IMG/VR virus record: IMGVR_UViG_3300023179_000069
Coordinates: 18,472-82,471 of that record
DNA length: 64,000 bases
Reading direction: 5' to 3' (one strand)
Origin: a virus
Each line of letters starts with the position of its first letter. Position 1 is the stretch's first letter. Positions 3,248 through 56,008 of the stretch are shown in pieces. The notes beneath the pieces are model-generated. The model ran no database searches, was not told where the DNA came from, and worked only from the letters and a program-made list of their open reading frames with translations. A program made the translations under genes and the position numbers.

Positions 3248-3882
3248 TGGCATGGCCTATTGGTTCAGGAATTAGTATTGGAGTATTTCCAAGTAATAGT
3301 ATTTCTAATCCCCCCGCTGCTTCAGCGGCGGGATGGTATGATTTGACAGATCACAATAGACAATCAATAAACATTAGTTTTGAGCCAATTCAAAGAGAAA
3401 AAAGAATGGCAAATGGTTATATGAGAAAATATGTCATTGCACAAAAAAGAAATGTTTCTGTAAATTGGGACATGGTTCCATCGGTAGCATCTGTTCAAAC
3501 ACAAATAATTACAGGTTCATCAGGATTGGGAAATGTTATTTCTAATCTTACAGTAGATGGAAGAGCGGGCGGGGCTTGGCTAAAAGAATTCTATGAAAAT
3601 AATGTATTCATTCCCATCTGGATTAAAATAACACATTCAACAGCATCTTCTACTGGTAACTATACAAATGGTTTTATTCCCACCGCTTCTGTCTATACAA
3701 GTTTAATGAATAGTGCATCTTACTTTTCCTATCCGACAGTTTCAAGCAATATTGGAAAACCTTTACTTCCTAAACAACCAGAAATATTCTTTGGATATAT
3801 GACAGATTTTTCATATAATGTTCAAAAGCGTTTTAAATATACCGATTATGTTGATATGGGAATAAGGATAACTGAAATATGA
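3247..3882 (+). CDS. Minor (distal-tail-like) tail protein
   Basis: Directly after tape measure; LTDHNR and RMANGYMRKY motifs. Confidence 0.65.
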   Translation: MAWPIGSGISIGVFPSNSISNPPAASAAGWYDLTDHNRQSINISFEPIQREKRMANGYMRKYVIAQKRNVSVNWDMVPSVASVQTQIITGSSGLGNVISNLTVDGRAGGAWLKEFYENNVFIPIWIKITHSTASSTGNYTNGFIPTASVYTSLMNSASYFSYPTVSSNIGKPLLPKQPEIFFGYMTDFSYNVQKRFKYTDYVDMGIRITEI

Positions 3883-6800
3883 TAGGTACATCAACAGATA
3901 AGAATTTTTTTTACAATCAAAATGCAATTGAAATAAAATCAAATGTATGGATGGAGTGGAACTATAACACCATTATTCAACCATTTGTTGTTGCATCAAC
4001 ATATAATAAACCAGAATATATTGGGCCAGATAGTGGATGGTCAGCCACTAACTCATCAATATCCAATGGAGTATCTTCTAAAATTTCAAGAAATCAAGCA
4101 AGGGCAATACCAACATCAGACTATAATTGGAATGCAAGGTCAAATGGATCGAACACAGTAACTAATTTTCAAATTAATGGAAATTATTCAGATATAGCTT
4201 CTTATACTCATTCATTTTCAACTATAAAGCCAGCCGGATATTATAAAATAGTTTTTTACGCCAAAGGCAAATTGCCAATTGTAAGTGGAAACTTAGGAAA
4301 TGTAACAACTACAACCGCTACATACGCCGGTTCAGCAGGTACAAGTTCTGCTGTGTATGCCGTTCAAGCAGTAGGAAGATATGGACAACTTGCAAATATT
4401 TTAAATGCTAATCAATATGAATTAAAAAATATAAATGCTATTTCAGCTACAAATCCAGTACAAGTAACTTGGACCGGAGTTGAAGGAGCAATAGGATACA
4501 ATATATATAGAAAAGCAGTCAATACTTCTAAAAAATATGATACATTCGCCTATCTTGGAACAGTTCAAAATTCAACTACTACTTATTCCGATAAAGCAAC
4601 TACCATTGATCCTTTTGCCAATGTTAATGTAATTGAACAAAATATTATTAATTTTACTCCACGCATTTCTTTAAAAGAAGAATTGGATAATTTAATTCCA
4701 TTTAGATATGATACATATTCATCTGATATAAATAATGGCGGACTGATTGAAGGAGAAAAAACAATTAGATTAGATGGAATAGACTGGCAAAAAATAGAAA
4801 TATACATTTACTCTCAGCAAGATTTCAAAAAAATTAATTTTGATTTTATGATAAACTCTTTCTTCTTAGAACCAACAGTTCAAGTAAGTCCAATGTGGAT
4901 ATATGAAATTTCTGAATCAGATTATTATAATAGAAAATATTTTCCATTAGAATCAATATTTTCGGGTAAAAGGCCCGGAGAAGCACTTTTAAACCCATTC
5001 ATAAACAATTTTGACAATAGTGATAATTTTAATTATTACAGAGATGTTTCTAGTGTAGATACTGCTTATAGTAGAAGAAAATTATCATATTCTTTTATGA
5101 ATGTTTCTAATATTTATGAACAGGCAACAGATCAAAGCGGAATGTTTCAAATTATTCCTGATAGAGAAAGCAAGTATAAATATTATATTTCTGATATTTC
5201 CGGCGACGACAAAGGAATTTCTGCTTATTACGATCAATACCTATCAGTAAATAAAATATACATTAAGACAAATAATGTATTTTCTCAATATTCAACTGCA
5301 TTAAATACATCTTCTTTTACAATTTATTTTAATAAATCAGATGGAACAGCATCTTCATATTTATACACAAACGCTTTAAATTTTGATTCAAATGGCATAT
5401 CAGTATTTTATTATAAAGACAACACTTGGTACAACACATCTGGAAGCGCATTTAGTGCATGCATTCAATATGCAGCATCTGTAAATTCTACAGCCAACGG
5501 CGGCTGGCTACCCCCAACAATAGGAAATAATGGGCAAATAGATTCTGCACAAATTCTTACTCAAATGACTGGCCTAGCATTTAAATATGATACTAAATCA
5601 TTAATGGGCGAAACCGAAGATAATAGATTACACCTAGTAGAAATATCACCAAGACTTGAAATAGACATTACAGATTATGTTGAATCATATAATATTTCAA
5701 AAGAAATGTCGAATGAAGATTCAGGAAATGATTTCCCATTAGGATTTATCACATCAAATTCTGGTGAAATTGTTATAAATAATTTTCCAGTGTACTATAA
5801 CAATAAACCATTTTCTATTTTTGAAAATAGAAATTCACAAACATTTTTATATGATCTATTGACTCAAAATGTAAAATTTACGGGATATTTTAGATCAACA
5901 GTTGATAGAGCAGATTTTACAAAAATTATTCCATCTTTTGTTATGTATGCAGAAAATTGGTCAGCGGAAGACATTAATAATCTTACTGTTACTATTTTTG
6001 ATGCCATGAAACCATATTTACAATCTAATGAATCTGCTCAATATGTGGCTTCATCCGAAAGTCTTGATACCGTTATTAATCATCTTTTTGCAATTTCTGG
6101 ATTTAGTGATTATAGTAGAGCTGAATTAAATAAAGTATGTAAAAATAAAACACAATCAGGGTACTTCTGGACAGAAGAATCAAAAACAGTTGCTCAATGT
6201 TTACAGGAATTATTTATATCAAATCAAATAGGATGCTATTTAGATGAAACAGGATTTATGAGATTTATTGATATAGATTCAATTATTGATAAAAAAATAA
6301 ATGATAGTTTAACAACAAATTTTGATATTTCAGATATAAAATCTTCAAACTTTCCTTACTTGCCAAACCTTATAGATAATTCATATCAAGAAACATTAGG
6401 TACAACAATTGGAAAAATTATTATAAATTATAGACTTCCAAATTCTTTTACAAGTCCCGCTGTTTTGCCAAATCAAAGTTCTTTTTCAGAACAATTAAAA
6501 AACATCTCTGGTGTGTTTTCTGAAGAATCTAATTTAGCATTAGGTCATACTCTTTTAAGCGCAAGTTTTTCAAGTTCAGATCTTGATCTTCAAATTAATA
6601 ATACATATCTTGAAAAACCAAGAAATAATCCGGGAACGCAAACGGGAGACTTCTTTGTTGGTTGTGAAGCAGTAAAATTAGATGGGCATAAATATTCATT
6701 TGTAGTATCAGGAAGTCCCGGATATAATTTCCAAAAAATAATTAGATATGATTCTGATATCAATAATGCAGTACAAGAAGTTGTGGGTCAATTTGGCAAG

Positions 6801-34192: not shown

Positions 34193-36020
34193 TTTAAATG
34201 AGTTTTTAGATGTTTTGGATGAAGACGAATTTGAAGAAAAGCCAGTTTCTATTGAAGAATTTGTTACATCTAAAAACTTTTTAAATCTTCCGCCATTGTC
34301 AAAATATCAATATATAATGCTTAGCGCAATGACACAAATTTACAAGCGTGAAACATTAGAAAAATTATATGGAAAAGAGGAAGGGTTAAAAAGATATAAG
34401 CAAACTTGTAATGAAGTTATTTTTCAATTAGGCAAAGGTTCTGGAAAAGACTACACATCAACCATTGCTTGTGCCTATGTTGTTTATTTGTTGTTATGTT
34501 TAAAAGATCCAGCCAGATATTATGGAAAACCCTCAGGCGATGCTATTGACATTATTAACATTGCTATTAACGCTGAGCAGGCTAAGCAAGTATTCTTCAA
34601 AGGTTTTTTAGCTCGTATTAAAAAAAGCCCTTGGTTTTCTGGAAAATTTGATGATAAGGTGGCTAAGGTAGAGTTTGATAAGGAAATCACTGTACATTCA
34701 GGTCACTCTCAAAGAGAATCTTGGGAGGGATACAATGTTATTGTTGTTGTACTTGACGAGATTTCAGGCTTTGAATTAGATTCAACTTCAGGAAATGAAC
34801 AGGCAAAAACAGCAGATGCAATTTATAAAATGTATAGGGCTTCCGTTGCATCTCGTTTCCCAGATTTTGGTAAACTAATTCTTCTATCATTTCCTAGATT
34901 TAAAAATGATTATATTCAGCAAAAATACAATGAAGCAGTTGCTGAAAAAGAAACTGTAATTAGAACACATACATTTAAAATTGATCCAGATTTACCGGAT
35001 GAACTTGAAGAAAATAAATTTACTATTGAATGGGAAGAAGATCACATTGTTTCTTATTCTGTTCCAAAAGTATTTGCACTAAAAAGACCCACTTGGGAAA
35101 TTAATCCAACAAGAAAAATTGAAGATTTTACAATTGATTTTTACAAAGACCCAATAGATTCATTATCAAGATTTGCTTGTATGCCACCGGACGCTGTAGA
35201 TGCATTCTTTAAGTCCAGAGAAAAAATTGAAAGAGCTTTTGTTACCAGAAATGGTGTTGATGAATATGGAAGGTTCGCTGACGGATTTCAGCCAGAAGAA
35301 GGCAAAACATATTTCGTACATGTGGACTTGGCGCAAAAGCATGACCATTGTGCAGTAGCAATTGCTCATGTTGATAAATGGACTATCTTAAAAGTTGGCG
35401 GACAGATGAGAGATGCTGCCCCTGAAGTTGTTGTAGATGCAGTAAGATGGTGGACTCCAACATCCGATAAAAGCGTAAACTTTCAAGATGTTAAAGATTA
35501 TATTCTTAGTCTTAGGTCTCGTGGATTTAATATTAAAACTGTTACATTTGATCGCTGGAATTCACATGACCTTATGGCACAACTTAATGCTTATGGAATG
35601 AATGCTGAAATTTTATCGGTTGCCAAAAAACATTATGATGACATGGCACTTGTTGTAACAGAAGAAAGATTAAAGGGTCCAAATATTAAATTGCTTATTG
35701 ATGAACTTTTACAATTAAGAATTATTAAAGATAAGGTTGACCACCCAAGAAAGGGTTCAAAAGACTTGTCTGATGCGGTTTGTGGAGCAATATATAATGC
35801 TGTAAGTTTAACCCCTAGAGGTGAATCAGAAATTACAATTAAAGATTATTATAATTTTGCAGATATTGATGAAGATGATGACGCAAAGATGAGACAACAT
35901 TTAAGCATTACAAGAATTCCAACTGATAAAGTTATGCCGGATAACATTAGAGACTATTTAAGTTCTGAAATTACTAGATCAGAAGAGCAAAGGTTTCTTG
36001 ACAATTTCCAAATTATATAG
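34185..36020 (+). CDS. Terminase large subunit
   Basis: GKGSGKD, VVLDE, nuclease HVDLA..D..DHP..KDLSD. Confidence 0.92.
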   Translation: MIDLNEFLDVLDEDEFEEKPVSIEEFVTSKNFLNLPPLSKYQYIMLSAMTQIYKRETLEKLYGKEEGLKRYKQTCNEVIFQLGKGSGKDYTSTIACAYVVYLLLCLKDPARYYGKPSGDAIDIINIAINAEQAKQVFFKGFLARIKKSPWFSGKFDDKVAKVEFDKEITVHSGHSQRESWEGYNVIVVVLDEISGFELDSTSGNEQAKTADAIYKMYRASVASRFPDFGKLILLSFPRFKNDYIQQKYNEAVAEKETVIRTHTFKIDPDLPDELEENKFTIEWEEDHIVSYSVPKVFALKRPTWEINPTRKIEDFTIDFYKDPIDSLSRFACMPPDAVDAFFKSREKIERAFVTRNGVDEYGRFADGFQPEEGKTYFVHVDLAQKHDHCAVAIAHVDKWTILKVGGQMRDAAPEVVVDAVRWWTPTSDKSVNFQDVKDYILSLRSRGFNIKTVTFDRWNSHDLMAQLNAYGMNAEILSVAKKHYDDMALVVTEERLKGPNIKLLIDELLQLRIIKDKVDHPRKGSKDLSDAVCGAIYNAVSLTPRGESEITIKDYYNFADIDEDDDAKMRQHLSITRIPTDKVMPDNIRDYLSSEITRSEEQRFLDNFQII

Positions 36021-36027
36021 GTATAAT
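35998..36027 (+). promoter_or_regulatory. Promoter TTGACA-N18-TATAAT for tRNA-Ile
   Basis: Perfect hexamers 9 nt before the tRNA. Confidence 0.8.
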
Positions 36028-36036
36028 AAGTTTTAC

Positions 36037-36111
36037 CGGGCGTGGGTGAGCTGGTTGACCACCGCAGGCTTATATCCTGCTATTTGATGGGTTCGATTCC
36101 CATACGCCCGA
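36037..36111 (+). tRNA. tRNA-Ile(UAU)
   Basis: Acceptor CGGGCGT/ACGCCCG; GCAGG-CTTATAT-CCTGC; T arm ATGGG-TTCGATT-CCCAT; no CCA. Confidence 0.85.
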
Positions 36112-36113
36112 CT

Positions 36114-36228
36114 GAGTGGTAGGTAGCGCATCTTAGGATGGATTAGTTACCCAAGCCGGATGAGTCCAAGTGTGAGATAGTTCTCCGACCCATTTGATGC
36201 AGGACTCGGCAAGTTCTACCTACCACTC
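36114..36228 (+). ncRNA. Unassigned structured RNA
   Basis: Perfect 13-bp closing stem plus internal stems CATC/GATG, GAGTCC/GGACTC, GAGA/TCTC. Confidence 0.65.
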
Positions 36229-36258
36229 TCAAGTATGGTAAAATATGAATGAGGACAT

Positions 36259-39814: not shown

Positions 39815-40264
39815 ATGAATGAATTAATTATTAAACTCAGACAACTACAGGCCAATGCCTTTCAAATGTATGCTCAGGCACACGGATACCACTGGAATGT
39901 AGAGGGTATGCTGTTTAAAGAACTTCATGCATTCTTTCTAGAAATTTATGAAGATGTATTTGATTCTATTGATCCAATTTCAGAGAATCTTAGAAAGCTT
40001 GATTCATTCGCCCCATTTGGAGCAGCCGCATGGCATCACAATGCCACAATTTCTATTAATGATTCAGAGGAACTTGATCCAATTACAATGCTTACTGAAT
40101 TATATAAGACAAATGATCTTTTGATTACAGAATTAAAAGACATTTTTAATGTTGCAGATTCAGCAAATGAGCAGGGCATTGCTAATTTTATTGCAGAGCG
40201 CATTGATCAGCATCAATTCTGGCGTTGGCAAATTAAAGCCACGCTTAAAAAAGTCGTAATTTGA
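39815..40264 (+). CDS. dps: Dps ferritin-like protein
   Basis: HGYHWNVEG..LH..FLE..D..E. Confidence 0.93.
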   Translation: MNELIIKLRQLQANAFQMYAQAHGYHWNVEGMLFKELHAFFLEIYEDVFDSIDPISENLRKLDSFAPFGAAAWHHNATISINDSEELDPITMLTELYKTNDLLITELKDIFNVADSANEQGIANFIAERIDQHQFWRWQIKATLKKVVI

Positions 40265-40290
40265 CAAATAAATAATTAATACGCTAATAT
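40261..40290 (+). promoter_or_regulatory. Promoter TTGACA-N18-TAATAT for the tRNA pair
   Basis: 11 nt upstream of the tRNA-Arg-like gene. Confidence 0.7.
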
Positions 40291-40301
40291 AGTTCTTATA
40301 C

Positions 40302-40378
40302 CCCTCCGTATCTCCTGTCGCTTCTAACGACTTGAAAGAGTAATTGGATACATGCAGGTTCGATTCCTGTCGGGGGGA
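40302..40378 (+). tRNA. Non-canonical tRNA-Arg(UCU), D-loop hairpin 3' of anticodon arm
   Basis: Acceptor CCCTCCG/CGGGGGG, GTCG-CTTCTAA-CGAC, T arm GCAGG-TTCGATT-CCTGT; no D arm at the normal site. Confidence 0.7.
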
Positions 40379-40388
40379 CTAAAAACAA

Positions 40389-40460
40389 TGGCGCATAGCT
40401 CAACGGCAGAGCATCCGACTGTTAATCGGAGGGTTGAAAGTTCGAATCTTTCTGTGCCAG
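40389..40460 (+). tRNA. tRNA-Asn(GUU)
   Basis: TGGCGCA/TGTGCCA; TCCGA-CTGTTAA-TCGGA; TTCGAAT. Confidence 0.95.
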
Positions 40461-40472
40461 CAGGGAGAGCAA

Positions 40473-55700: not shown

Positions 55701-55996
55701 GGGGTAGATCGGTTTCGACAGTTGTTGTGAACAGTCTACAGCAGCCCAAGTTGTGCAAACTTGTAAAACGGTACAAAACAAATAATCGGCACACTTATTA
55801 CCGAATCAGCACTACGCAACAAACTAGAGACTTTCGTTAGAATTTCTGTAGCAGCGTAATCGCCACGCTGATGACTAGCGCGGGAACAGAATAGTCATAC
55901 TGTATAATAAGATAAGTAATACAAATAGCAATACATGGCTGTAATACTGTAATTGGGATAGACAATTGGACGCGGGTTCGATTCCCGCCTACTCCA
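55701..55996 (+). ncRNA. ssrA: tmRNA
   Basis: GGGGTAG/CTACTCC with G3:U, GGTTTCGAC, T arm; tag ORF 55788-55859 ends VAA*. Confidence 0.93.
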
Positions 55997-56008
55997 CAAG
56001 GAGGCATA

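Follow-up and report, generated by a model that had tools for sequence, protein, structure and literature searches.

To our knowledge, the order of strands in the transfer RNA (tRNA) cloverleaf has been treated as universal: the known exceptions lose arms or change stem lengths, and none re-orders the strands. The permuted tRNA genes of the red alga Cyanidioschyzon merolae carry the 3' half before the 5' half, and their transcripts are processed into a canonical tRNA. Here we examine a 77-base element at 40302-40378 (+ strand) of a 64,000-base stretch of phage DNA, positions 18,472 to 82,471 of IMG/VR record IMGVR_UViG_3300023179_000069 (hereafter the window). The whole contig, 82,471 bases long with a GC content of 33.4%, represents an estimated 66% of the phage genome. 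Judged from comparative sequence analysis, the element is likely to be a working tRNA-Arg(UCU) of a phage-borne family, and its layout would be a non-circular permutation of an ordinary tRNA. As in the C. merolae genes, the order of tRNA segments departs from the cloverleaf, but the element is not a circularly permuted gene: its acceptor strands stand at its two ends, inner segments have been exchanged, and selection acts on the permuted order as such.

The metazoan mitochondrial D-armless tRNAs (mt-tRNA-Ser; PMC7609411) resemble the element in having no D hairpin and in being difficult for gene finders. As described in the available text of that 2020 review, however, they have lost the D arm and carry a flexible connector, whereas the element, found in bacterial phages and endowed with an ordinary T arm, keeps a re-routed D stem and D loop. 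The mitochondrial class is marked by loss of the D stem and of the contacts between D loop and T loop, while here counterparts of the D stem and of a D loop with GG are conserved at another place in the molecule. Neither 'phage' nor 'permuted' occurs in the searchable part of the review. The 8/4 and 9/3 tRNAs (allo-tRNA; Mukai et al., PMC5389517) are likewise non-standard designs from metagenomes and phage tRNA clusters, but in the portion of that paper at hand they keep cloverleaf order and change stem lengths only; a term search of the same portion gave no occurrence of tRNAArg or tRNAIle. Non-circularly permuted hammerhead ribozymes (type SGC) were described by Eckert et al. in 2023 as previously unknown in natural RNAs (PMC10085705), and the accessible text of that paper mentions, for tRNA, only circularly permuted genes restored by processing. 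The element and the SGC hammerhead share a block order that no circular permutation yields and a three-dimensional core that is presumably kept; they differ in that the latter is a self-cleaving ribozyme (PMC10085705, same text). No published description of a segment-swapped tRNA was found in a literature search that had subscription journals and supplements outside its scope.

Segment order, helices and D-loop equivalent

A canonical tRNA can be divided into four segments: S1 (positions 1-9), S2 (10-21, the 5' strand of the D stem and the D loop), S3 (22-45, the 3' strand of the D stem, the anticodon arm and the start of the variable loop) and S4 (46-76). Ordinary tRNAs have them in the order S1-S2-S3-S4, and the element is most readily parsed as S1-S3-AAA-S2-S4. 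Direct reading confirms the parts listed in an earlier note on this DNA: an acceptor stem of 7 pairs, one of them G-U, between 40302-40308 and 40371-40377; a T arm at 40354-40370 with a 5-bp stem and the loop TTCGATT; the anticodon loop CTTCTAA at 40321-40327, with anticodon TCT at 40323-40325, U33 and A37; and only 8 bases (40309-40316) between the acceptor and anticodon stems, which leaves no D hairpin there. The element has the 7-bp acceptor stem, 5-bp T stem with T-loop consensus, 7-base anticodon loop, U33 and purine 37 of a canonical tRNA, but the canonical D hairpin (10-13/22-25) between position 9 and the anticodon arm is absent, and 22 bases (40332-40353) separate the anticodon arm from the T arm.

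Standard tools do not report such a gene. ARAGORN found five genes in the window, Ile(TAT), Gly(TCC), Asn(GTT), Thr(TGT) and a transfer-messenger RNA (tmRNA), none of them at 40302-40378, and a search of Rfam at the gathering threshold gave no match over the element. Under relaxed settings, in a 231-base search, RF00005 aligned with 40302-40378 at 25.7 bits (cut-off 29 bits; E 0.0018), deleting the D arm (15 model positions to 4 bases) and placing an 18-base insertion in the variable region. Rfam matches to YrlA and plastid models over the element lay far under their cut-offs and were set aside.

Homologues were collected with two sequence patterns and a covariance model. The first pattern, taken from a comparison of the window with a related phage locus (L014, see below), gave 48 matches in 47 IMG/VR stretches, 24 of them in the rewired layout; 20 distinct sequences, including the window (alignment A1), were used to build covariance model R1. 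A second pattern was less strict, with no constraint on the D-loop part, and reached at least 119 stretches. When R1 was applied to 71 new loci it returned 65 matches at E<=1e-5, the later-found members scoring 59-94 bits, and a search pooling 80 sources yielded 84 matches with scores of 59-100 bits, of which 82 differ from one another (alignment A3). The family comprises at least these 82 sequences, all with the same order; the earlier note had named a lack of homologues preserving this order as a mark of a decayed pseudogene, and such homologues were found. The window element scores 96.3 bits, partly by construction as it is one of the 20 model sequences, while ordinary tRNAs in the same loci reach at most 25.7 bits.

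The helices of the rewired layout are strongly maintained. In alignment A1, 98.9% of 380 pair cells are standard pairs, compared with 64.9% after shuffling and 39-50% with slid partners, and double changes occur in 16 of 19 pairs. Over the 82 sequences, 98.0% of 1639 pair cells are standard (62.0% shuffled, 36-45% with slid partners), with a covariation score of 0.942 against 0.228. All seven acceptor pairs covary, as do the four pairs of the anticodon stem (40317-40320 with 40328-40331; arm 40317-40331). The T arm is supported both by the Rfam alignment and by covariation, and the 3' acceptor strand with the discriminator A (40371-40378) by direct reading and covariation.

The helix that decides the topology is formed by CTC (40312-40314) and GAG (40338-40340), which enclose the anticodon arm. 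The earlier note had proposed this pairing and named covariation as the check; the two strands are paired in all 82 members, and two of the positions each show four pair types (AU 36, CG 31, GC 10 and UA 5 at one; CG 60, UA 17, AU 3 and GC 2 at the next). The four columns of these two pairs were fixed by neither search pattern, and RNAalifold recovers the helix unprompted. The third pair, otherwise fixed, is flipped to G-C in one member from Streptomyces phage Mildred21. A second proposal of the earlier note, a hairpin of GTA (40340-40342) with TAC (40349-40351), did not hold up. These bases can pair in the window, and in the family two of the three pairs never vary, but the outer pair is present in only 3 of 20 relatives, no covariation supports the hairpin, and the 5' base of the outer pair covaries instead with 40312. 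The element thus shows no conserved paired hairpin in the variable region of the kind that marks class II tRNAs, and the segment is better read, on the family alignment, as the 5' D-stem strand followed by an open D loop.

Mapped onto canonical numbering, TAT (40309-40311), which is invariant in all 20 sequences found without fixing it, would provide U8, A9 and then a U in the place of position 22, opposite the U at 40341 in the place of 13. CTC would stand for D-stem positions 23-25 and continue into the anticodon stem through CT (40315-40316; the C invariant, the T in 19 of 20 sequences of A1), the likely places of 26 and 27, with U27 opposite the U at 40332 in the place of 43. The connector TTGAAA (40332-40337), which runs from the anticodon stem to the second helix strand and is conserved but part of both search patterns, may correspond to positions 43 to 45 followed by a linker AAA. 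GAG with the following T (40338-40341) takes the place of the 5' D-stem strand, positions 10-13, as indicated by covariation and RNAalifold; its first G (40338) is invariant in the family, and G10 is invariant in ordinary tRNAs.

The stretch that follows the helix reads A, R, one to three bases, GG, N, N, A, like positions 14, 15, 18, 19, 20 and 21 of a D loop. This agrees with the earlier note, which had taken AATTGGATA (40342-40350) for a D loop carrying G18G19: the GG is present in 73 of the 82 sequences, and in the window A14 would be 40342, A15 40343, G18G19 40346-40347, A20 40348 and A21 40350. The R15 column (column 42) has as its top mutual-information partner column 54, the base directly before the T stem (0.53 bits; next best 0.21), with the combinations AU 62, GC 11, GU 3, GG 4, AC 1 and UG 1. 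This covariation is what a 15-48 Levitt pair would give. In the window the two columns hold A 40343 and T 40353, the latter being the last base of the CAT linker (40351-40353) to the T stem, which acts as position 48, the Levitt partner of A15.

The base after GG separates the two main amino-acid classes of the family. Of the 49 Arg members, 47 have A there in the alignment, and all 49 do once two shifted rows are realigned by eye, whereas none of the 31 Ile members does (T 24, C 2, G 2, gap 3), in line with the earlier note's reading of this base as the A20 arginine mark. The base after GG is the best Arg/Ile discriminator outside the anticodon, followed by the discriminator base, for which all 31 Ile members have A. 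Table 1 of PMC9976931, the part drawn on here, lists as bacterial identity sets A20, C35, U/G36 and A/G73 for Arg and A73 and U20 for Ile; within that table, the class-specific bases of the aligned family match these sets, and the window sequence carries the Arg set as A 40348, C 40324, T 40325 and A 40378. CCA is encoded directly after 25 of the 49 Arg members.

The family, its carriers and the locus

The Arg anticodons among the 82 sequences are ACG (25), TCT (15), CCT (6), TCG (2) and CCG (1); the remainder are Ile GAT (19) and TAT (12), and CAT (2). All are connected by single-base steps. An Ile-type example of the swapped layout lies at 4482-4558 (- strand) of locus L122. A motif-free grammar scan of 265 loci (2.14 Mb) gave 89 unique candidates, 83 of which have Arg, Ile or CAT anticodons; as these loci were fetched through Arg/Ile-type patterns, other amino-acid classes may occur elsewhere. 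The six others, singletons with other anticodons, appeared by eye to be misparsed ordinary tRNAs and were dropped. Within the window's own contig, a second R1 match (14.4 bits) sits in the tRNA-like end of the tmRNA and was likewise rejected.

Carriers include cultured phages of Streptomyces and Microbacterium, a crAss-like Bacteroides phage and a Vibrio phage, as well as freshwater contigs; with one member as query, 75 of 80 GenBank records matched were Streptomyces phages. Among the cultured carriers, the element lies at 93609-93685 in Microbacterium phage A3Wally (MZ150783) and at 95577-95653 in Kehishuvirus 'tikkala' (OQ198717). A scan of 185,579 species genomes with the strict motif returned 11 matches, none of which was a member by R1 or lay near a tRNA; this shows only that the exact motif is not common in cellular genomes, as divergent forms and prophages would escape it. 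Some members vary the layout. In Vibrio phage 424E50-1 (OX241437.1, about 129800-129883; L266) the connector has 13 bases instead of 6 and the match scores 50.1 bits, while IMG/VR member L239 has AAA alone as connector, a 4-bp helix and a 5-bp anticodon stem.

Streptomyces phage Mildred21 (MF155946.1; L263) illustrates how such genes are annotated. Its rewired tRNA-Arg(TCG) at 91367-91442 is annotated as tRNA-Phe(gaa), apparently because the TTGAAA connector and the next base were taken for an anticodon loop. Two further rewired genes, Ile-GAT at 73703-73779 and Arg-ACG at 94857-94933, are unannotated, and a divergent rewired Arg-TCT at 86379-86453 (43.5 bits) is labelled tRNA-OTHER. Between 70 and 100 kb of this genome ARAGORN found 33 tRNAs, one tmRNA and one undetermined tRNA, and none of the four rewired genes. 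Across bases 70,000-131,976 the sole canonical Arg tRNA is Arg(cct), and the rewired genes supply ACG, TCG and TCT. The phage also encodes an RNA ligase, a polynucleotide kinase, a CCA-adding enzyme and a Ro-like protein.

Comparison of the window with its relatives was made through the neighbouring Dps-like gene, which as a query led to 80 related phage loci, 29 of which were run through ARAGORN. A blastn-short search of the element against these loci gave short matches only, among them those in L014 and L023, the first homologues. The closest relatives, L002 and L024, whose Dps proteins are 76-77% identical to that of the window, carry a canonical tRNA-Arg(TCT) (3491-3565 and 3485-3559, respectively) behind the conserved end of the Dps gene and the promoter. 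These canonical genes (RF00005) share with the element the locus, promoter, anticodon, stem lengths, TTCRA loop and a D-loop GG followed by A; in the element, the 5' D-stem strand and the D loop come after the anticodon arm, with an extra AAA-containing connector. Another subgroup includes both forms: a canonical tRNA-Arg(TCT) follows a tRNA-Leu in L003, L008 and L009, and between the same flanks L014 and L023 have the window's layout with different stems. R1 detected the rewired form in three of the 80 Dps loci (L014, L023 and L053). As judged by these flanks, the rewired form occupies the place of the canonical gene in two lineages or more. In its 3' acceptor strand the window gene hardly differs from the canonical tRNA-Arg of L002 and L024. 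That the acceptor stem is nearly shared while the bodies differ hints at an exchange of the body by recombination inside the gene, and not at replacement of the whole gene.

Surroundings of the gene and codon usage

The earlier note had credited the gene with its own promoter and an ordinary tRNA-Asn neighbour, and both are seen at the level of sequence. A sigma-70-like promoter, TTGACA-18-TAATAT (40261-40290, + strand; 10 of 12 matches), ends 11 bases upstream of the tRNA, and the same block precedes the canonical tRNA-Arg of L002 and L024. An ordinary tRNA-Asn(GTT) (40389-40461, + strand; found by ARAGORN, 68.7 bits in Rfam) begins 10 bases downstream of the element, with which it probably shares a transcript. 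TTGACA-type boxes, such as those at 40261 and 40639 in the window and at many other loci (for example after tRNAs of L003, L014 and L015), flank single tRNA genes, and many tRNAs of this phage group may be separate short transcription units started from these recurring boxes. Neighbouring genes encode a terminase, an endolysin, a Dps/ferritin-like protein (39815-40264), an Hsp20 and proteins of the GDP-mannose pathway.

DNA contigs from three other studies contain the same arrangement, one (X4) covering 40289-40470 with 3 differences and two matching without differences over 40310-40466 (X6) and 40174-40355 (X2), which shows that it is not an assembly artefact. Beyond these, a blastn search of 1.9 kb around the gene against GenBank phages gave generic tRNA similarity only and no close relative, an exact 30-base scan of IMG/VR gave no match, and the Hsp20 neighbour used as a query gave no related loci.

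The codon usage of the phage is consistent with a need for this tRNA. AGA accounts for 346 of 589 Arg codons (59%) in 56 crude open reading frames, and no other tRNA-Arg was found in the 82-kb contig by ARAGORN, R1 or Rfam. The supply of AGA by the element, predicted from its anticodon, fits this usage, and the phage's other tRNAs (Ile-UAU, Gly-UCC, Thr-UGU and Asn) also fit A/T-rich codons.

Two further RNAs of the window may be mentioned. The tmRNA lies at 55701-55997 (+ strand; RF00023, 100.5 bits), with the predicted tag GTLITESALRNKLETFVRISVAA; a tmRNA is found near tRNAs also in the relative L024 and in Streptomyces phage Mildred21. Directly after tRNA-Ile(TAT), a segment of about 120 bases (36113-36230, + strand) is closed by a 13-bp stem and has a minimum free energy of -42.2 kcal/mol (z -2.80; 0 of 200 shuffles as good). 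No Rfam match was found in 35950-36250, and the segment may be a structured RNA of unknown kind.

Proposed fold, alternatives and implications

The comparison establishes a conserved family, four helices, a 15-48 covariation, a class-specific base at position 20 and, in relatives, a canonical gene at the same locus. The earlier note's suggestion of a maintained tRNA-Arg(UCU) with altered connectivity draws support, at the level of sequence, from the helix covariation, the Levitt-type pair, the A20 and this same-locus canonical gene. From these features we infer the following three-dimensional fold, processing, charging and decoding. The D stem would form between CTC and GAG around the anticodon arm and stack on it in the usual way. 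Coming directly after its own strand of that stem, the D loop (A14, R15, G18G19, A20, A21) would have the T loop and position 48 within reach, and a C-A-Y linker whose last base serves as position 48 would lead into the T stem. The core bases U8, A14, R15-Y48, G18G19, A21 and the T loop are all present, and the result would be an L-shape with three chain connections re-routed: 9 to 22, 45 to 10 and 21 to 46. RNase P cleavage and then CCA addition would yield a tRNA that the host arginyl-tRNA synthetase (ArgRS) could charge through A20, C35, U36 and A73, and that would read AGA, the main Arg codon of this AT-rich phage.

Several observations weigh against this proposal. The D-like helix is short, with three Watson-Crick pairs, and its equivalent of pair 13-22 is an invariant U-U. 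Under our mapping, pair 11-24 is purine-pyrimidine in 77 of 82 members; bacterial elongator tRNAs usually have the reverse, pyrimidine-purine. The window gene does not encode CCA (its next bases are CTA), and folded as a single sequence the element adopts a non-tRNA structure of minimum free energy (z -1.70). No RNA run contains the element and none holds more than 0.04 of the sampled words; one RNA contig (X19) covers only 40396-40450, inside the tRNA-Asn. The L-shape is argued from canonical structure. On the side of the statistics, relatedness among the sequences inflates the shuffle comparisons, alignment A3 was fitted to model R1, and the conservation of TAT, CCT, TTGAAAG and TA is partly by construction, as these formed part of the sequence patterns.

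Several other explanations were weighed. The element might be a tRNA-like decoy or regulator, a mimic that soaks up a nuclease, a modification enzyme or ArgRS, or plays some other tRNA-like role, and delivers no arginine. The unusual topology is perhaps easier to accommodate in a mimic than on the ribosome, and the RNA data described above would suit such a role; moreover, the RNA ligase, polynucleotide kinase, CCA-adding enzyme and Ro-like protein of carriers such as Mildred21 point to conflict over tRNA integrity. Yet the family retains the acceptor stem, the T arm, an anticodon loop of 7 bases, the discriminator and, in many members, an encoded CCA. Its anticodons are sense anticodons for two amino acids only, and the synthetase marks agree with them. 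Where relatives have a canonical tRNA-Arg(UCU), the window has this gene instead, with no other tRNA-Arg found in the contig, and in the examined part of Mildred21 the only decoders of CGN codons are rewired genes. We consider a decoy improbable. Alternatively, the gene could specify a functional D-armless tRNA with a plain connector before the anticodon arm, as in mitochondria, and a long class II-like extra arm formed by the GTA/TAC hairpin. Rfam does place the stretch as an insertion in the variable region, and the inner pairs of the hairpin are constant; however, the outer pair is rarely kept and its 5' base covaries with 40312, the supposed connector CTC pairs with GAG throughout the family, and the D-loop marks (A14, R15, GG, A20, A21) come with a covariation of the 15-48 type. 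An extra arm is accordingly very unlikely.

It is also conceivable that the transcript is cut and rejoined into canonical order, as for the red-algal permuted genes, and some carrier phages do encode an RNA ligase and a polynucleotide kinase. Such a repair is extremely unlikely here, as the swap is internal: circularising and cutting cannot restore the order, for which the RNA would have to be cut twice and ligated specifically at two joints. Neither intron-like nor bulge-helix-bulge motifs were seen, although no search was dedicated to them, and it is in the permuted order that selection has kept the CTC/GAG helix and the 15-48 covariation. That the gene is a decayed or rearranged pseudogene, or an artefact of assembly, without function, is scarcely credible. 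Its rejection by standard tRNA finders and the intact canonical gene at the site in L002 and L024 might suggest decay, but 82 distinct sequences from very different phages show compensatory changes in every helix, and contigs of three other studies carry the identical arrangement.

Why a rewired tRNA, if such it is, should persist is more speculative. A tentative proposal, on balance unlikely, is that the permuted fold arose once, spread among phage tRNA arrays and persists because its re-routed core goes unrecognised by some host or rival factor that reads the D-arm side of tRNA-Arg or tRNA-Ile, for instance a defence nuclease or a toxin dependent on modification, and yet is accepted by ArgRS, EF-Tu and the ribosome; the anticodon would then have shifted by single bases along ACG-UCG-UCU-UAU-GAU/CAU, the position-20 base and the discriminator changing in step with the amino acid. 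The earlier note had raised evasion of host tRNA nucleases by the element, and this stays a conjecture.

As gene finders miss or mislabel rewired genes, inventories of phage tRNAs and analyses of codon supply are incomplete, and since cultured carriers exist, the proposal can be tested directly. The rewired design could also offer new scaffolds for orthogonal tRNAs. If the reading presented here is true, the family would follow the hammerhead ribozyme as the second natural case of a structured RNA with a non-circular permutation, this time in the best-studied RNA fold. If these tRNAs are charged and competent on the ribosome, the translation machinery would be reading a three-dimensional shape and a few bases, and not the path of the chain.

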